Shown: piece by piece, positions 5,367 through 36,890 of the stretch
Layout: the number at the start of each line of letters is the position of its first letter
How positions within the stretch are numbered: position 1 is the stretch's first letter
Virus genome (UHGV): UHGV-0031292
Source of the DNA: a virus
Strand: one strand, 5' to 3'
Length of the DNA stretch: 39,344 bases
Notes under the pieces: generated by a model
What the model was told of the DNA's origin: nothing
Database searches by the model: none
What the model saw: only the letters and a program-made list of their open reading frames with translations
Translations under genes and position numbers: made by a program

Positions 5367-5951
5367 TTATTGTTTGCTTTTTTCGTTCTGGTTGATGACA
5401 AATTCAATGTAACTTTCGATCTTTGCTTTCTCGGTTTCGGGTAACAATGCGTAGCGCGAGCGGTCATAGTTGATGGTCGCAGGGTCGTGCGGGTGAATCA
5501 GTAATTCATAGCCGTGACGCCCGAATGCGGATGCAACATTCTCCAGGGTGGAAATGGAAACGCTGACCTCATTGTTTAACAGGCGGCTGATTGTCACCTG
5601 GGCGACGCCGGATGCGCGGTGAAGTTTTCCCTGTGTTGAAAGGTCGCGGCTTTCGCTCATCCAGCGTTCCAGGTTGTGAGCCGCCAGTTGACCAATGTCG
5701 CTTGGTCCGACAGGCTGAAAACCTTCCTGAGAAAGCGAGCGATCGATATCAAGCCAGTTACGGGGTTTATTGGCGGCAGCTTCAATTTTTCGTGCAACCT
5801 GGTCGCCGATAACCTTCTTGCCAAGAGCCCAGCGGTTTACCAGATTTGCCTGAGTTCCAAGTTTTTCAGCCATCCGCGTCTGAACACCATTGAATTCACG
5901 GTCGATCAAGTCGTTGAGATTTTGCCTGCGGACGTCCTGGATACTTTTCAT
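5367..5951 (-). CDS. Prophage repressor (CI-like) with two tandem HTH_XRE domains and no recognisable S24 autocleavage domain
   Basis: 194-aa ORF divergent from cro; two HTH segments (QTRMAEKLGTQANLVNRWALGKK... and HRASGVAQVTISRLLNNEVSVSISTLENVA). Confidence 0.65.
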   Translation of the reverse strand: MKSIQDVRRQNLNDLIDREFNGVQTRMAEKLGTQANLVNRWALGKKVIGDQVARKIEAAANKPRNWLDIDRSLSQEGFQPVGPSDIGQLAAHNLERWMSESRDLSTQGKLHRASGVAQVTISRLLNNEVSVSISTLENVASAFGRHGYELLIHPHDPATINYDRSRYALLPETEKAKIESYIEFVINQNEKSKQ

Positions 5952-6336: not shown

Positions 6337-6360
6337 TATCCATCCACAACCCTCTGTAGA

Positions 6361-6381
6361 CCGCCATCCGGCGGTCTTTTC
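6361..6381 (+). terminator. Intrinsic terminator after cro (CCGCC-ATCC-GGCGG plus TCTTTT)
   Basis: GC stem-loop followed by a short T-run 25 bp after the cro stop. Confidence 0.45.
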
Positions 6382-7494: not shown

Positions 7495-8276
7495 ACAACG
7501 TTTTTACCGCGATACAAAACCGTGACGGAGAAGCCCTTTCTCGCATGTCAGGTTATGAGCATCAGTACGTCAACAATGACAATGTGGTGAACATGTCAGC
7601 AGAGAGGCTTGTTGATGCCCTTTTCAAACAGCTGAAACAACTGTTTCCGGCGGCAGTAGTAACCAACCTGAAGACTCCAGAGCAGGAAGTTGCTGCAAAA
7701 CAGCAGTGGATTGCTGCGTTTGCCGAAGGGGGGATCCGAACCCGTGAACAGGTTTCTGCTGGTATGCGCCACGCCCGCGCCAGTGAATCTCCGTTCTGGC
7801 CGTCGCCAGGGCAATTCATCAAGTGGTGTAAAGACAGCAAGATGGTTCTTGGCGTCACCATTGACGATGTGATGGCGGAGTTTCACCGGTACAGCAAGGA
7901 AAAAAGTTTATATCCTGGTGGTCCCGAAAGATTCCCGTGGCGACATCCGGTTATGTACTGGGTCGTATGTGATACCCGCCGTGCAATGTATCAGCGCCAG
8001 CTTAGCGAGATTGAGGTTGAGAAACACGCGCGCAGGCTGCTCGATGATTGGGCGAAAAAGGTAGCTTCCGGACAGCAGATACCCGATCCGGTGATCAGCA
8101 TACAGGCAAAGCCAGAACCCATGAGTACGCCTCCGGACACAGGGAGAGACGTTTACCATCCACCAGGGCGAAGTTTCGGGTGTATGCCTAACGCCGCCAC
8201 ATTGGGGGGAATAACACCGGCACAGTGGCTGATGGAGGAATACAGGCGGGGAAAGGCGGCAGGATTTATCAAGTAA
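7491..8276 (+). CDS. Replication protein P-like (helicase loader)
   Basis: Recognisable similarity to lambda P (GGIRTREQVSAGMRHARASESPFWPSPGQFIKWCKD); GTG start overlapping the O stop (GTGA), GGGAGGA upstream. Confidence 0.75.
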   Translation: MNNVFTAIQNRDGEALSRMSGYEHQYVNNDNVVNMSAERLVDALFKQLKQLFPAAVVTNLKTPEQEVAAKQQWIAAFAEGGIRTREQVSAGMRHARASESPFWPSPGQFIKWCKDSKMVLGVTIDDVMAEFHRYSKEKSLYPGGPERFPWRHPVMYWVVCDTRRAMYQRQLSEIEVEKHARRLLDDWAKKVASGQQIPDPVISIQAKPEPMSTPPDTGRDVYHPPGRSFGCMPNAATLGGITPAQWLMEEYRRGKAAGFIK

Positions 8277-10491: not shown

Positions 10492-11042
10492 TCACTATTA
10501 CCAAAGGGCGACTGCTGACAATCAAGCAGTGGCGCGAAATATACGGACCTGGTAGCAACGTTGTACTGCCAGCAGAAGAAGCGGAAGAACTGGCACGGAT
10601 TGCACTGGCATCGCTGGAAGCAGAGTCTGTAAGCCAAACTTACAACTTGCCAGAATTGATCGAAGGCATGGAAGTTTCCATTGATGTAAGCACTTGTGAT
10701 GCTGATTTAGGTAATCGCTATTTCGGCACCGTCACCGAGGCGTTAGAACTTGATACAGCCAAGAATGGTTACATCCTCCTGGTTCAGGACGCAGAGCCAA
10801 ACTTCGATGTAAATGGCAACTCTCCGAGTTGGATAAGCTGTAGTGATCAAATGCCTGAAAAGGGCCAGAACGTGCTTATTTCGGTGAATTTCGATAGCTC
10901 TCTGGTTGAACCGCTAATATGCTCCGCACGCTATACCGGAAGCACCTTTCGGCGCGGAGATGCAACGATTAAGCCGGGTAATGGTATTGAGCAAGCAACT
11001 CACTGGATGCCGCTACCAGAACCGCCGCAGGAGGTGAAGTGA
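10488..11042 (+). CDS. Hypothetical phage protein with C-terminal DUF551-like domain
   Basis: 184-aa ORF; C-terminal WISCSDQMPE...ATHWMPLPEPP. Confidence 0.5.
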   Translation: MITITKGRLLTIKQWREIYGPGSNVVLPAEEAEELARIALASLEAESVSQTYNLPELIEGMEVSIDVSTCDADLGNRYFGTVTEALELDTAKNGYILLVQDAEPNFDVNGNSPSWISCSDQMPEKGQNVLISVNFDSSLVEPLICSARYTGSTFRRGDATIKPGNGIEQATHWMPLPEPPQEVK

Positions 11043-11404
11043 TGGACTATTCACAGTTAAGTGATTTTGAAATTAACGTGGCGGTATTCGAAGCCATTCA
11101 TAGCGGATCACCGGATTACAAAGAAGGTGAGAATGGCGATATGGTGTTTGTCTCATTTGAGGGAGACATTGTAAACGGAGACGCAGTTGAAGTAGAAGTT
11201 GAGCGCGGATCCTTTAACCCATGCGCAAACCCAGCAGACGCATGGCCGATTATTGCTGATAACGGAGTTAACATTCTCTGGGACTGGAACGAAAGCGGTT
11301 TGCACGGTGCTTCTGCCAACCCTATTTGGGAGCATGAGCATGAAAATGTTCTCCGAGCCGCCATGATTGTATTTCTCATGATGCAGGAAAATCAGAATGG
11401 CTAA
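11042..11404 (+). CDS. Hypothetical protein
   Basis: ATG after GGAGGTGAAGTG; acidic 120-aa product. Confidence 0.45.
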   Translation: MDYSQLSDFEINVAVFEAIHSGSPDYKEGENGDMVFVSFEGDIVNGDAVEVEVERGSFNPCANPADAWPIIADNGVNILWDWNESGLHGASANPIWEHEHENVLRAAMIVFLMMQENQNG

Positions 11405-11735
11405 ATCAGCAGCAGAGCGCAAAGCTGCTCAGAGAGCCAGACAAGCTGCATCTGGTGTGCGTAAGCTGGAAATTGTGCTTGATGCTCAGGAAATTGAAAT
11501 GCTTGAGCGTAACTGTGCCGCGCGTCGCCCCGGGCGTGCGCCTTACGAATTTGGTGAGTATATAGCGTTACTGATCCGCCAGGATGATGCACGCGTGCGC
11601 GGGCGTATAAAATCGATCAGCAGAAAATGTTGCGGTAAGTGCGGCGAGAGAGTTCCAGTTAATTCATGCCCGTGTAATGGTGACTCGCAATGCTGGGTGA
11701 CTAAAGGCTGGCATGAAACGAAATTAATAGTGTGA
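11397..11735 (+). CDS. Small basic protein with C-terminal Cys-rich zinc-ribbon-like motif; candidate late-gene regulator (speculative)
   Basis: 112-aa ORF, last early-right gene before terminator and packaging genes; motif CCGKCGERVPVNSCPCNG. Confidence 0.4.
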   Translation: MAKSAAERKAAQRARQAASGVRKLEIVLDAQEIEMLERNCAARRPGRAPYEFGEYIALLIRQDDARVRGRIKSISRKCCGKCGERVPVNSCPCNGDSQCWVTKGWHETKLIV

Positions 11736-11743
11736 CATGTCAC
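11732..11743. promoter_or_regulatory. 12-bp perfect palindrome GTGACATGTCAC overlapping the stop codon of the 11397 gene (copy 1 of 2)
   Basis: Identical 12-mer at 31923-31934. Confidence 0.4.
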
Positions 11744-11784
11744 GAGTAGATTATGCATGATGAATTTGATGGGTTTTGAATACT

Positions 11785-11810
11785 GCCGCCAACTATGGCG
11801 GCTTTATTTT
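11785..11810 (+). terminator. Intrinsic terminator between early-right and packaging genes (GCCGCC-AACTAT-GGCGGC plus TTTATTTT)
   Basis: Perfect 6-bp GC stem and T-rich tail; lies inside the N-terminal extension of the track ORF 11776-12450. Confidence 0.55.
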
Positions 11811-11853
11811 GCATGGTACTATTACCACAACGGTAACTATTACCACGGTGGTT

Positions 11854-12450
11854 ATGATGCCTGCTGAACCTAAAACCTATAAACGCAAATCAACGCAATT
11901 TAAGCCACTAACAGCAATGCAGGAGGCTTATTGCCAGTCATACATCAAAACGCCTGAAAACCAGACTCAGGCAGCGATTAACGCAGGATTCTCCCCAAAT
12001 ACAGCGGCAGTTAAAGCCAGTGTCATGATGCGCGATGAACGCATTCAAAAACGGATTGCCGAGTTGATGGAGGAGCGCAACAAACGAATGCGCGTCAGTG
12101 CTGATTACGTTCTCATGCGCCTGGTGGAGATCGACCAGATGGACGTGATCGACATCCTCAACGACGATGGGAGCCTTAAACCAATCCGTGAGTGGCCGAA
12201 AATCTGGCGCACTACGCTTAGTGGCTTTGATCTGTCATCGACCATCATGAACATGAACGAGGATTCGATAGAGACAATCCTCAAAAAAATTAAATGGCCT
12301 GACAAGGTGAAGAACCTTGAGCTGATTGGTAAGCATGTTGATGTCAACGCGTTCAAAGAACGTCTGGATGTTAATGTGAATGTGACAATTGCTGATCGCA
12401 TAGCAGCAGCCAGGAAGCGACTCAAAGAACGTCAGGATGGTAATCAGTGA
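11854..12450 (+). CDS. Terminase small subunit
   Basis: Directly upstream of and overlapping the large terminase; start moved to MMPAEPK because the longer ORF includes a terminator hairpin. Confidence 0.6.
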   Translation: MMPAEPKTYKRKSTQFKPLTAMQEAYCQSYIKTPENQTQAAINAGFSPNTAAVKASVMMRDERIQKRIAELMEERNKRMRVSADYVLMRLVEIDQMDVIDILNDDGSLKPIREWPKIWRTTLSGFDLSSTIMNMNEDSIETILKKIKWPDKVKNLELIGKHVDVNAFKERLDVNVNVTIADRIAAARKRLKERQDGNQ

Positions 12451-13922
12451 CAGATACAGCGTTATCTCCTGAAGAGCAGTTGATCGAGGATATTGCAGGG
12501 TTCACTCACGATCCGCTTGGCTATGCCCTCTATGCGTTCCCGTGGGGGGAAGAGGGGACTGAACTGGCACATGCCACCGGCCCACGTCAGTGGCAGGCTG
12601 ATGCGTTCCGAGAGATACGTGATCACCTGCAGAATCCAGAGACGCGCTATCAGCCGCTTATGCTGGCACGCGCTTCTGGTCACGGTATTGGTAAATCCGC
12701 ATTCATCTCAATGCTGATCAACTGGGGCATGTCCACTTGCGAGGATTGTAAGGTCGTGGTGACCGCCAACACCGACAACCAGCTACGAACGAAGACCTGG
12801 CCGGAAATTATCAAGTGGTCGAACCTTGCTATCACGAAAGACTGGTTTACCTGTACCGCTACCGCGATGTACAGCAATGATCCTGGACACGACAAGCGGT
12901 GGCGAGCTGACGCAATACCCTGGTCTGAGCACAACACTGAGGCATTCGCCGGACTACACAACGAGCGCAAACGCATCATCGTGGTATTCGATGAAGCGTC
13001 GAACATTGCGGATCTGGTGTGGGAAGTTGCCGAGGGTGCGCTAACGGACGAAGACACTGAGATTATCTGGGTGGCGTTCGGAAACCCGACGCGTAATACC
13101 GGACGTTTCCGCGAATGTTTCCGCAAATATAAACACCGCTGGAAAACTGCGCAGATTGACAGCCGGACGGTGGAAGGCACCAACAAACAGCAGTTGCAGA
13201 AATGGGTTGATGACTACGGGGAAGACAGCGACTTCGTTAAAATCCGTGTGCGCGGCATATTCCCTGATGCATCTGAATTGCAGTTTATCCCTACCGGTCT
13301 TACTGACGAGGCAATGAAACGGGTGGTAACTGCTGCGCAGGTGGCACATGCTCCGGTGATAATCGGCGTTGACCCTGCATACTCCGGTGTTGATGACGCG
13401 GTGATATACCTGCGGCAGGGGCTGCACAGTAAGGTGCTGTGGACCGGCAACAAGACCACTGACGATCTGATTATGGCAAAGCGTATCGCTGACTTTGAAG
13501 ACCAGTATCAGGCTGACGCGGTGTTCATCGACTTCGGTTACGGTACCGGGCTGAAGTCAATCGGTGACGGTTGGGGGCGCACATGGCAACTTGTTCCGTT
13601 CGGTGGCGCGTCTACTGACCCGCAGATGCTCAACAAGCGTGGGGAGATGTTCAACTCATGCAAGACATGGCTGAGGCTGGGCGGCATGCTGGATGACCAG
13701 GAAACAGCGGACGACCTGTCGGCGGCAGAGTACAAAGTTCGAGTGGACGGTAAAATCGTTATCGAACCGAAGGAAGATATCAAGGAGCGGCTTGGGCGTT
13801 CGCCGGGTAAAGGCGATGCGCTACTGCTGACGTTTGCTTTCCCGGTGTCAAAGCGCCTGCGACTTCCCGGGCAGCAGAACCAGCAAGGCAAGGCGCTTAC
13901 CGAGTACGATCCATATGCTTAG
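12447..13922 (+). CDS. Terminase large subunit (ATPase/nuclease)
   Basis: 491-aa ORF with P-loop-like SGHGIGKS and DEAS (Walker B-like) motifs; GTG start overlapping upstream stop. Confidence 0.8.
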   Translation: MTDTALSPEEQLIEDIAGFTHDPLGYALYAFPWGEEGTELAHATGPRQWQADAFREIRDHLQNPETRYQPLMLARASGHGIGKSAFISMLINWGMSTCEDCKVVVTANTDNQLRTKTWPEIIKWSNLAITKDWFTCTATAMYSNDPGHDKRWRADAIPWSEHNTEAFAGLHNERKRIIVVFDEASNIADLVWEVAEGALTDEDTEIIWVAFGNPTRNTGRFRECFRKYKHRWKTAQIDSRTVEGTNKQQLQKWVDDYGEDSDFVKIRVRGIFPDASELQFIPTGLTDEAMKRVVTAAQVAHAPVIIGVDPAYSGVDDAVIYLRQGLHSKVLWTGNKTTDDLIMAKRIADFEDQYQADAVFIDFGYGTGLKSIGDGWGRTWQLVPFGGASTDPQMLNKRGEMFNSCKTWLRLGGMLDDQETADDLSAAEYKVRVDGKIVIEPKEDIKERLGRSPGKGDALLLTFAFPVSKRLRLPGQQNQQGKALTEYDPYA

Positions 13923-31629: not shown

Positions 31630-31926
31630 ATGCAAGCTATAGGATTCATTGTTTATATCGTCGTTGGTCTTTTTCAGTTGGCAGCAATTATGGCTGGGCT
31701 TGAATCATGGTGGGGATTGCACTGGATAATTGCAGCCCCCATCGCTTTCATCGTGAGCTATATTCCATTTGTTGGAGCGATTGTTGGTATGGTTGGCGCT
31801 GTGGATGTATGGCGGTGGGAGTGGTGGCAGGCTGGCCTTCTATTCTTTGGTGGGATAATCTTTGCTATTGTCTGCGGTGGAATGTCATCATTTTTCGAAT
31901 GGCTATCATTCAGAAAAGAGACGTGA
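31630..31926 (+). CDS. Small integral membrane protein (3 predicted TM helices), accessory
   Basis: 98-aa highly hydrophobic ORF; stop codon inside the GTGACATGTCAC palindrome and followed by a terminator. Confidence 0.5.
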   Translation: MQAIGFIVYIVVGLFQLAAIMAGLESWWGLHWIIAAPIAFIVSYIPFVGAIVGMVGAVDVWRWEWWQAGLLFFGGIIFAIVCGGMSSFFEWLSFRKET

Positions 31927-31934
31927 CATGTCAC
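31923..31934. promoter_or_regulatory. 12-bp perfect palindrome GTGACATGTCAC (copy 2 of 2), overlapping the stop codon of the 31630 gene
   Basis: Identical to 11732-11743. Confidence 0.4.
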
Positions 31935-31959
31935 AGGCCGCTTTCGCGGCCTTGTTTTT
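31935..31959 (+). terminator. Intrinsic terminator (GGCCGC-TTTC-GCGGCC plus TTGTTTTT)
   Basis: Perfect 6-bp GC stem followed by T-run. Confidence 0.6.
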
Positions 31960-34442: not shown

Positions 34443-36890
34443 ATGACGGTATCAACCGAAGTTGACCACAACGAATACACCGGTAACGGTGTTACAACGG
34501 CATTCCCTTATACCTTCAGGATTTTCCAGAAATCTGATTTAGTAGTGCAGGTTGTTGACCTGAACGAGAACATCACAGAGCTGATTCTTGATACTGATTA
34601 CATAGTCACTGGTGCTGGAGGGTATAACGGCGGCAATGTAATTCTGTCGAAGGCGTTGGCTAACGGTTATCAGATTTCTATATCAAGAGAGCTACCGGTT
34701 ACGCAGGATACCGATCTGCGCAACCAGGGTAAGTTCTTCGCTGAGGTGCATGAAGACGCATTCGATAAACTGACGATGCTGATACAGCAGGTTAGAAGTT
34801 GGTTTAGGTTGGCTCTGCGTAAACCATCATTTATTGCTAATTATTATGATGCCTTGAACAATTATATTCGCAATCTTCGTGACCCGTCACGGCCTCAAGA
34901 TGCAGCCACAAAAAATTATGTTGATAACTTATCAGTAACGAATTCAAACAGGGCTATACGAGTACCTGAACCATTTATATCATCGCTTCCTGATATTGAT
35001 GGTAGAAAAAACAAATCATTAAGCTTTGATAACGCAGGGGAACCATTGCTTTTAGATCCTGCTCAAAGCGGATTATGGGGTTATGTTCTGATTGATTCGT
35101 TTCAACTTGGAGCGAATATAACGACTAGATTCCAGGCACTACACTGGTCTTTACCTGATGGTAATGGTGAGTATTATCGTTGGGATGGAGAACTCCCAAA
35201 AATAGTTATGCCCGGTTCAACGCCAGATAGTTCTGGGGGCATTGGTCCTGGGGCTTGGTTGAGCGTTGGTGATGCTACACTACGATCCATGCTTTCATCA
35301 TGGAAAGGTTATTCATTTATAGATAATGGGAATCTTTCTTTATACAAAAAGAAAGGCTTGTTCGGTGACGCAGGGGAAGTTGAAACCTCATATGATGTTG
35401 TACAGCATTCTGATGGTTTCTGGTATAAATACACCGGAAGTCTGCCTTTTACTTATGGGGCAGCACCTGATTCCTTATGGGTAAATGTTGGTAATCTTAC
35501 CGGTTTTCCTGAGAATTCCCCGGAAAACTTTGGAGCTATTCCAGGGGTTGAAACATCTGATTGCCTACCCGCAATTAAATTGGCTATTTTAACTGGAACT
35601 CTACGACTAACCCCTGGAGAGACATATTATGTTTCTGATGAGGTTATCATCCCGTCTAACCTTATAATGTTTACAAACTCTGCAACAATTAAAGCGATGC
35701 CATCAGTAACATGGACGGGTAAAGCTGTCGTTAGGGCTAGCAAAAAGCCAGTAGGAACATCCCCGGACCTTTCATTGCCTGAACAACAAGTTCGTGGAAT
35801 TAGGCACATTGGTACATTAAATATTGATGCTAACAATGTTGCGCCTTACGGTTTTTATGGTTTTGGTGTAGTTGCAGAATCTGTCACAGACATTATATAT
35901 GCTTATAATGCCACAGAACTTGGAATTGTACTTCTTGGGAGTTGGTATCATAAAGTAAATCAATATATGGCAATTGATTGTGCAAGAGGTGTCTCTTTGG
36001 CGCATGGTTTCTCCGGTGAAACCGGAGATGTAAACGTTAATGGTGTTGAATTTGGTGTCGTCGCTGCGTATAACACATCAAAATCTTTGTCCTATGGGTA
36101 TGATCCGTATTCATCATCTTTAACCCCACAGCTCATAGGTGCCGGTGTCACTCTCGGGCAAGGATTGGCATCAAGAATAGGAACATTAATAGCTGAAACC
36201 ACAGCAGGCGCTGGTTTAGCTACTGTTAACGCTGTTAGTTGGTCTGTTGGTTCTATGTACTTTGAAAAATGCAGTGAAGCGCTTGAAGATAGTGCAGAGC
36301 CTGATATTGCGATATTATCAACTACAGGAAATGTCGAGGACCACGTATTTGACGTCGGTAATATCCATTTTGGCATAGGGACTGGTATACTGCAAAGAGC
36401 AACGGCAAGTGAGTTTCTCAACATCCAATCCATATACCGTATAGACAATAAAAAAACATGGCATAGTTCCTCAAAGGCGTCTTCAAGTTTTGTAAATTTC
36501 GTAAACTATTACGTTCTCAACCCTTATGATTACGTTAAACCGGTTCAACTGACTAATGACGTAGGCAAGGATGTTATAAGTTCATCGGCAATGCTTAACT
36601 TTAAGGATTTTTCAAATACGCCAAATATCCCATTTTTTTATACTGGCGGTGATCTTGATATTAATATAAGCATATCAGATGGTTCGATTATTGGGCTTGG
36701 TATTCAGGTTCAGTCTGAAGATGGAATTGAATATATAACATGCACATCATCACCGTTTTCAGCAAAGCTAACAAAAAGGAGAAATGCTTATTCTGTTTAT
36801 TGGGTATCAATGGGAACTCCAGTTCAAGAAGCTACTGGCATGGGGGCGATTATAATAACAAAACAAAAAACTTCTCAATGGCTTCGTTAG
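34443..36890 (+). CDS. Tailspike protein (conserved N-terminal virion-attachment region, AT-rich variable C-terminal receptor-binding domain)
   Basis: 815-aa ORF at the end of the virion module; composition shifts to AT-rich from about 34.8 kb. Confidence 0.7.
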   Translation: MTVSTEVDHNEYTGNGVTTAFPYTFRIFQKSDLVVQVVDLNENITELILDTDYIVTGAGGYNGGNVILSKALANGYQISISRELPVTQDTDLRNQGKFFAEVHEDAFDKLTMLIQQVRSWFRLALRKPSFIANYYDALNNYIRNLRDPSRPQDAATKNYVDNLSVTNSNRAIRVPEPFISSLPDIDGRKNKSLSFDNAGEPLLLDPAQSGLWGYVLIDSFQLGANITTRFQALHWSLPDGNGEYYRWDGELPKIVMPGSTPDSSGGIGPGAWLSVGDATLRSMLSSWKGYSFIDNGNLSLYKKKGLFGDAGEVETSYDVVQHSDGFWYKYTGSLPFTYGAAPDSLWVNVGNLTGFPENSPENFGAIPGVETSDCLPAIKLAILTGTLRLTPGETYYVSDEVIIPSNLIMFTNSATIKAMPSVTWTGKAVVRASKKPVGTSPDLSLPEQQVRGIRHIGTLNIDANNVAPYGFYGFGVVAESVTDIIYAYNATELGIVLLGSWYHKVNQYMAIDCARGVSLAHGFSGETGDVNVNGVEFGVVAAYNTSKSLSYGYDPYSSSLTPQLIGAGVTLGQGLASRIGTLIAETTAGAGLATVNAVSWSVGSMYFEKCSEALEDSAEPDIAILSTTGNVEDHVFDVGNIHFGIGTGILQRATASEFLNIQSIYRIDNKKTWHSSSKASSSFVNFVNYYVLNPYDYVKPVQLTNDVGKDVISSSAMLNFKDFSNTPNIPFFYTGGDLDINISISDGSIIGLGIQVQSEDGIEYITCTSSPFSAKLTKRRNAYSVYWVSMGTPVQEATGMGAIIITKQKTSQWLR

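Follow-up and report, generated by a model that had tools for sequence, protein, structure and literature searches.

The gene that closes the early region of an epsilon15-like prophage encodes a small basic protein with a cysteine cluster and lies directly before the terminase genes. This position raises the question of whether the protein controls late transcription, as an initial annotation of this DNA proposed by analogy with Q-type antiterminators and Ogr/Delta-type activators, and on which DNA site it might act. The window, the whole stretch of 39,344 nucleotides that was analysed, is a complete epsilon15-like (Uetakevirus) prophage of the phiV10/TL-2011b type. Within the part that was tested (10800-12500), the aligned portions are 97-99% identical to phiV10, TL-2011b, HEMP4 and ZX5. 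The epsilon15/phiV10-like phages include serotype-converting Salmonella phages as well as O157 reporter phages. The prophage is arranged in the order integrase, leftward early operon, CI-type repressor, cro-like gene, rightward early operon, terminase, virion, tailspike and lysis, with the gene considered here, at 11397-11735, being the final one of the rightward early operon (Table 1).

Table 1. Features of the prophage discussed in the text; positions are those of the window unless another locus is named.
Feature	Position	Strand	Remarks
CI-type repressor gene	5367-5951	-	
Gene for the 112-residue RHH plus zinc-knuckle protein	11397..11735	+	Epsilon15 gp49 / N15 gp46 family, PHROG 536
Predicted ribbon-helix-helix core, codons 21-66	11457..11594	+	Strand about 21-29, helix 30-42 and first part of helix 52-74; preceded by basic helix 5-19
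Predicted cysteine-rich zinc knuckle, codons 78-99	11628..11693	+	From the alignment of 61 homologues
Palindrome A, GTGACATGTCAC	11732..11743		Includes the TGA stop of the family gene; proposed binding site
Intrinsic terminator, GCCGCC-AACT-ATGGCGGC plus TTTATTTT	11785..11810	+	Stem 11785-11802 plus T run; starts 41 nt after the end of palindrome A
Two CI-operator-like sites, TTACCACAACGGTAA and TTACCACGGTGGTTA	11822..11854		Directly before the terminase start codon
Small terminase gene	11857..12450	+	First late gene downstream; Pfam Terminase_2, 1e-29; followed by large terminase
Palindrome B, exact second copy	31923..31934		Includes the TGA stop of the last small virion-operon ORF (31630-31926)
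Intrinsic terminator	31935..31959	+	Directly after palindrome B
Palindrome C, third GTGAC-N2-GTCAC site, GTGACCCGTCAC	34879..34890		In the 5' part of the tailspike gene, where it codes for RDPSR; kept in the related phage L154
CI-operator-like sites	211, 5233, 5295, 6007, 6055, 6392, 8314, 8376, 11822, 11840, 14742, 15360, 32884, 33944, 34324, 37241		
Loci listed for the lineage of protein P0236	L220 13222 and 16056; L091 10622		

The gene and its family

The reading frame is a real gene. It opens with an ATG that has AGGA 9-12 nt upstream. The 3' end of a NinX-like gene and the beginning of this one share 8 nt, and the two are translationally coupled. The 112-residue product has a pI of 9.53 and contains 22 Lys/Arg and 13 Asp/Glu residues, of which 7 and 1, respectively, fall within residues 1-24. 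Its seven cysteines are found at positions 40, 78, 79, 82, 91, 93 and 99, with the cluster reading CCGKCGERVPVNSCPCNGDSQC. The initial annotation had described a small basic protein with a basic N-terminal region and a cysteine cluster, encoded last before a terminator and the terminase genes, and was correct on all of these points, with the terminator beginning at 11785 and the small terminase gene at 11857.

The product matches PHROG 536 with an E-value of 1.4e-54. There are 766 homologues in a set of 5.8 billion proteins, and 156 clusters at 50% identity among 1.84 billion representatives. The family is carried by temperate phages of Enterobacterales, Vibrionales, Aeromonas and Pseudoalteromonas, and is common to at least five temperate phage architectures. 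Protein identity to the window copy is 77% for epsilon15, 42% for a Yersinia P2-like phage, and 35% for both N15 and KpLi5. The position of the gene at the early/late boundary is kept in several unrelated phage types, including Vibrio and Pseudoalteromonas elements.

No Pfam family covering the PHROG 536 protein was found, and single-sequence searches of Pfam, NCBIfam and the PDB gave nothing usable, returning only a weak YbfE-type ribbon-helix-helix (RHH) match. RefSeq labels the TL-2011b copy "transcriptional regulator", and the same label on PHROG 536 is derived from fold-level inference only. In the literature searched there was no experimental paper on the family. Two candidate sources were set aside, as the "regulatory protein" paper on ZX5 deals with repressor, antirepressor and integrase, and the "gp46" detected in the proteome of the Klebsiella NAR688 lysogen corresponds to the cB repressor and does not belong to this family. 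As a separate observation, perfect LexA boxes (CTGT-N8-ACAG) are located shortly 3' of the family gene in N15 (L002, about 5556-5580) and in the Yersinia phage (L003, about 5460-5480). These are likely SOS-controlled antirepressor or tum-type loci, separate from the palindrome described below.

Predicted architecture of the protein

A monomer model was built with AlphaFold from an alignment of 61 diverse homologues and has a mean pLDDT of 92.6. Its elements are, in order, a basic helix at residues 5-19, an extended stretch at 21-29, two helices at 30-42 and 52-74, of which the second is long, a small zinc knuckle and a closing helix at 100-108. The strand-helix-helix arrangement by which the RHH superfamily is recognized is present in the model and was recovered in fold searches. 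In the alignment of the 61 homologues, the conserved predicted zinc ligands are C79, C82, C91 and C99, giving a family spacing of C-X2-C-X8-C-X7-C, while C78 and C93 are extras of the window copy. On the basis of the model, the 112-residue product is very probably an RHH/zinc DNA-binding protein, and the RHH domain is expected to dimerize. The model is of a monomer, and a palindromic target is consistent with a dimer whose sheet would read the major groove. The structure prediction and profile comparison that had been suggested as checks pointed to an RHH/zinc-knuckle DNA-binding architecture, and revealed no homology to Q or Ogr/Delta.

A palindrome that accompanies the family

The initial annotation also named a palindrome as the likely target of the protein, and this sequence proved to be strongly and specifically associated with the PHROG 536 family. 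Across 295 kb of non-redundant family-encoding loci, GTGAC-N2-GTCAC occurs in 24 copies at 13 of the 16 loci, compared with 4 copies for the runner-up among all 1024 five-base arms at spacing 2. Nothing comparable was found in the same loci at spacings of 1, 3 or 4. Each genome has one to four palindromes with invariant arms, and the two central bases vary, even inside one genome. Furthermore, P2, HK97 and the early 12 kb of Mu, which served as family-negative controls, lack the palindrome, whereas family-positive P2-like, HK97-like and Mu-like phages carry it, giving three matched pairs.

The palindrome is often found at the family gene itself. It overlaps the stop codon of this gene in the window, epsilon15, a Klebsiella phage, N15, KpLi5, the Yersinia P2-like phage, a Pseudoalteromonas element, and the IMG/VR contig L087. 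In several phage-plasmids of Vibrio and Photobacterium it follows the gene at a distance of 5-240 nt, and in Mu-like phages the coding sequence is extended at its 3' end to include it (..TDVTGHA..). In some 11 of 17 sampled lineages it is located within about 250 nt of the stop, and in 8 of the 17 it overlaps the stop. Of 80 close relatives, 75 retain the exact stop-codon site, and in about 50 an extra palindrome directly follows the large terminase gene. A reverse search of IMG/VR for AGCGTGACNNGTCACA recovered the family gene on 5 of 80 fragments, the fragments being short. No paper describing the palindrome was found in the literature searched. From this pattern of association, it is probable that the family protein binds GTGAC-N2-GTCAC.

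The lineage of protein P0236 differs in its sites (Table 1), having none with spacing N2 and two of the form GTGAC-N1-GTCAC, one of them about 55 nt before the small terminase gene. Site spacing may thus co-vary with protein lineage.

Placement of the palindrome at unit boundaries

The two exact copies in the window (11732 and 31923) and the three copies in epsilon15 (39612, 2142 and 19517) each precede an intrinsic terminator that ends a transcription unit, with 0-41 nt between them when read in the direction of transcription. A terminator of this kind is found within 60 nt at 11 of 31 sites, compared with a background of 8.4% (P about 2e-5), though the window and epsilon15 sites among them are not fully independent. 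Further sites lie 12-19 nt before a start codon and abut the ribosome-binding site; this is the case at gene 47 of N15, at terminase genes in Vibrio elements and at one other operon. For the most part, the palindromes are found at the 3' ends of units or directly before ribosome-binding sites, and not at activator positions upstream of promoters.

Some sites are intragenic. In Mu-like transposase genes, for example, the palindrome codes for RDWSQ, and the 12-mer is identical in five diverged lineages in which the flanks have drifted. Mu-like palindromes in the transposase gene and near the repressor gene are located at 12848, 13289 and 14245 of element L138, and also occur in L104, L117, L094 and L106. 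Phage Mu has neither the family gene nor, in the early 12 kb that was checked, the sites. In the window, the copy within the tailspike gene coincides on the minus strand with a 10/12 promoter-like match, GTGACG-18-TATAAT.

The sequence that follows the palindrome is variable. In Klebsiella phage ST11-OXA245phi3.2 (L214, 2779-3190), a consensus LexA box and a umuD-like gene come right after the palindrome and before terminase, replacing the terminator, and a different gene begins at this point in 21 of 80 E. coli relatives. Given this variety of 3' sequence, be it a terminator, a umuD cassette or another gene, the site also marks junctions at which modules or morons (accessory genes) are inserted. 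The combination of an RHH and zinc-knuckle architecture, a set of 12-bp sites and a boundary placement across five phage architectures is undescribed in the literature searched; the fold class is known.

Proposed action at unit boundaries

In the reading preferred here, an RHH/zinc regulator recognizes GTGAC-N2-GTCAC and acts at the boundaries of transcription units. Once expressed from the end of the rightward early operon, the protein would recognize the 12-bp palindrome as an RHH dimer. It would be found at site A (11732), some 40 nt ahead of the terminator between the early and terminase genes, as well as at site B (31923), directly upstream of the terminator of the virion operon. Bound at these sites, it would alter the behaviour of RNA polymerase at unit boundaries, and once enough protein had accumulated, the adjacent terminators would be read through, coupling early transcription to packaging and late genes. 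The protein would thus be a local boundary or read-through regulator, outside the Q and Ogr/Delta families. Taken as a whole, from binding through a transcriptional effect to the sign of that effect, this chain is tentative. That the family protein acts on transcription at boundaries at all is somewhat easier to accept, with a likelihood just short of even. Read-through as the net effect is favoured by a regulator encoded directly upstream of the barrier, giving a Q-like timing, and by the geometry of a site followed by a terminator, and is put forward with considerable doubt.

The positions at 3' ends would fit equally well with a roadblock or insulator, in which the bound protein stops or slows RNA polymerase at unit ends. 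Such a protein would reinforce termination, limit its own synthesis through the site in its own last codons, and shield the unit from convergent transcription that comes from neighbouring morons in reverse orientation. However, the first polymerase passes the site before any of the protein exists, and a terminator is already present at the boundary, so that a block would bring no obvious gain. In addition, the sites at the N15 gene and at the Vibrio terminase genes precede the ribosome-binding site of an essential or co-operonic gene, where a permanent block would be harmful. A roadblock with autoregulation is considered unlikely.

Palindromes without the family gene

Though the palindrome is specifically associated with PHROG 536, it is not exclusive to it. 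The complete genome of AsXd-1 (L223, MH178096.1), an HK97-like lambdoid phage, has two exact palindromes, at 7723 and 11251, and no member of the family was found in it, even with half-domain HMMs and no filters. Relatives of AsXd-1 (L133, L140, L143 and L166) likewise carry conserved palindromes and lack the family. In AsXd-1, one copy overlaps the TGA stop codon of a Cro/YdaS-like gene that is located shortly before the replication gene, while the other falls within Q, with both arms preserved even though the central bases alter the encoded residue.

These genomes lend themselves to an alternative in which the palindrome is the site of another factor, from host or phage, the RHH/zinc protein binds elsewhere, and the association reflects a shared location at module junctions. 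The invariance of the arms across hosts from Vibrio to Escherichia, and the differing modules that directly follow the palindrome, can be read in the same way. Nevertheless, the site adjoins the family gene in most sampled lineages, and the three matched pairs separate family-positive phages with sites from family-negative phages without them. To our knowledge, no host regulator with this 12-bp site has been described. A binder other than the family protein is therefore held to be improbable.

Relation to Q, Ogr/Delta and Mor

In its strongest form, the proposal of a late-gene regulator would make the family protein the master switch of epsilon15-like phages, a functional analogue of Q or Ogr/Delta acting from the palindrome at a late promoter before terminase. 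The gene is the last before the terminator and terminase, and its boundary position is kept in Vibrio and Pseudoalteromonas elements for which no Pfam Q hit is recorded. At site A, moreover, a promoter-like element is followed by a terminator, which is the layout of lambda PR'-tR'. The arm GTGACA, an 18-nt spacer and CATGAT form a 9/12 match with the terminator 41 nt downstream, and the epsilon15 equivalent is GTGACA-17-TAAATT. The initial annotation had noted that no other late activator is recognizable. In 23 scanned ORFs of the window (about 13 from the early region plus NinX-like, DUF551 and the two terminase genes), no Q, Ogr or Mor was found, but a PerC-like transcriptional activator is encoded at 2356-2655 on the minus strand, within the leftward operon (PF06069, E 6e-07; PHROG 868). 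The Pch proteins are prophage-encoded PerC homologues that activate virulence genes in pathogenic E. coli.

Against a master role, no match to Q was obtained in Pfam at E<=1 for the window protein or any of its 61 homologues, nor was there one to PF04606 (Ogr/Delta), whereas the same tool scores N15 gp40 as Phage_antiter_Q at 1e-110. The family also coexists with each of these regulators. N15 carries both gp46 of the family and gp40 (Q), and Klebsiella KpLi5 carries the same pair. The Yersinia P2-like phage vB_YenM_56.17 encodes gp14 of the family together with an Ogr_Delta protein (4e-21) whose gene has its canonical location after gene D, and in the Mu-like element L138 the family gene lies upstream of GemA and Mor. 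Given this coexistence, the conserved function of the family is something other than a master late switch. A general use of the palindrome arm as a -35 element was rejected as well, a -10-like hexamer at promoter spacing being no commoner at the 31 sites than in the background (7 of 62 strand tests against 5.5%), and sites B and C and most others are not ahead of promoters.

The differences extend to the proteins and their sites. Like lambda-type Q, the window protein is the product of the last early gene and has a DNA element and then a terminator ahead of the late genes; lambda Q binds zinc as well. Unlike Q, to which it has no homology, it is about half the size, and the family has multiple sites at unit ends rather than one promoter-embedded site. 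With Ogr, Delta and Pag of P2-like phages it shares the character of a small basic zinc-binding phage protein proposed for late-gene control. However, the DNA-binding domain of the family is of the RHH type, its cysteine spacing differs from the C-X2-C-X22-C-X4-C of Ogr/Delta, and a P2-like phage holds both proteins. The sites of the Ogr/Delta activators are TGT-N12-ACA, about 55 bp upstream of late promoters, whereas the motif associated with the family is a different palindrome at different positions.

Repressor sites also bear on the need for an activator. The CI-operator-like sequence TTACC-N5-GGTAA occurs 16 times in the window, against 0.64 expected, and such operators are found ahead of nearly every unit, including integrase, terminase (11822, 11840), the portal operon (15360), tailspike (34324) and lysis (37241). 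The repeats listed as ACTATTACCAC in the initial annotation are these same operators, and the GenBank record of epsilon15 annotates the same arrangement. The genome-wide layout of repressor sites recalls the 'stoperators' of mycobacteriophage L5. With CI operators ahead of them, the late units may be directly repressor-controlled, which weakens the argument for a necessary late activator. A master late regulator is thus quite unlikely. What survives of the original proposal is a protein with DNA-binding architecture, encoded at the early/late boundary and associated with a palindrome, without kinship to Q, Ogr or Delta and without the role of a master activator.

Relation to other ribbon-helix-helix and zinc-binding proteins

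The family resembles the RHH proteins Arc, MetJ and CopG in its predicted strand-helix-helix core, its basic N-terminal arm and a short palindromic putative target with invariant arms. Occasional tandem sites about 30-35 bp apart suggest cooperative dimers. It differs in that a Cys4 zinc knuckle is conserved at the C-terminus and helix B is preceded by a long linker. The associated sites, moreover, lie 3' of the gene and at the ends of units, not in its own promoter. Pfam RHH models gave no match at threshold for the window protein or the 61 homologues. A role as an RHH antitoxin was discarded, as there is no conserved toxin-like partner and the downstream ORFs are unrelated across lineages or absent. 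A PADLOC search for defence systems returned no match.

A second resemblance is to MatP and its site matS, GTGAC[AG]N[TC]GTCAC (PMC3603311). The likenesses are an RHH-based binder, identical half-sites (GTGAC and GTCAC), few sites per replicon and an overlapping host clade. However, matS is 13 bp long (N3) and the phage palindrome 12 bp (N2), with one base less between the half-sites, and the sites of the phage-encoded family are tied to operon boundaries. Homology to MatP was rejected, with an hhalign probability of 0.8% and a predicted structure that has neither the four-helix bundle nor the coiled coil of MatP. The resemblance to matS is best treated as a lead and not as membership. A DNA-organizing protein, the phage counterpart of MatP/matS in bridging, marking or interference with host matS, or else a helper in replication, partition or packaging, is very unlikely given this lack of kinship, site positions that stand in no constant relation to cos/pac, ori or par loci from one phage type to another, and an association with terminators that it leaves unexplained.

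The C-terminal half, in turn, resembles the C4 zinc fingers of DksA and TraR in a C-x2-C-G-x2-[IL]-P knuckle with a long helix before it and a short helix after it. When the family profile was compared with PDB sequences, the top three matches were to YbiI and TraR (E 0.02-0.04). By hhalign, the probability is 63% against F-plasmid TraR and 2.8% against P2 Orf82, a true member of PF01258. None of 61 family members matches PF01258, whereas TraR and P2 Orf82 do, and the second knuckle of the family, unlike that of DksA/TraR, is not C-x2-C. Fold searches did not recover TraR and did not rank DksA highly. A link of this half to TraR/DksA therefore failed against P2 Orf82 and Pfam, and is kept as a weak possibility only.

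A more far-reaching view, which has little likelihood at present, is that of an undescribed and widely shared phage 'boundary element' system or, alternatively, a phage MatP-like system with 12-bp matS look-alikes. In the first version, an RHH dimer tethered to DNA upstream of terminators or gene starts would hand its zinc module to a passing RNA polymerase. This module may be distantly TraR/DksA-like and might bind the secondary channel. Each site would then switch termination off (or on) in its own vicinity, in contrast to the processive action of Q or N loaded at a promoter. In the second version, the look-alikes would organize phage DNA or interfere with the Ter organization of the host. 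Local action at terminators, if true, would be a new way of wiring phage temporal programmes, and a functional resemblance to matS would link phage genomes to the chromosome-organization machinery of the host. With a defined 12-bp site at known positions, the question of late control becomes directly testable.

Other control signals in the prophage

Strong terminators lie directly 3' of the cro-like gene (6358-6377) and of the repressor gene (5346-5327), suggesting that read-through or antitermination is also required for the early genes to be transcribed. No N-like protein was recognized. In the intergenic region after the family gene, no known RNA element was found beyond an Rfam match below threshold to the Hfq-binding sRNA rseX (11724-11809, plus strand; 27.8 bits compared with the 50 needed), which was not accepted and is probably driven by the terminator. 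The stretch itself, from the palindrome to the terminator, would fold into a short two-hairpin RNA.
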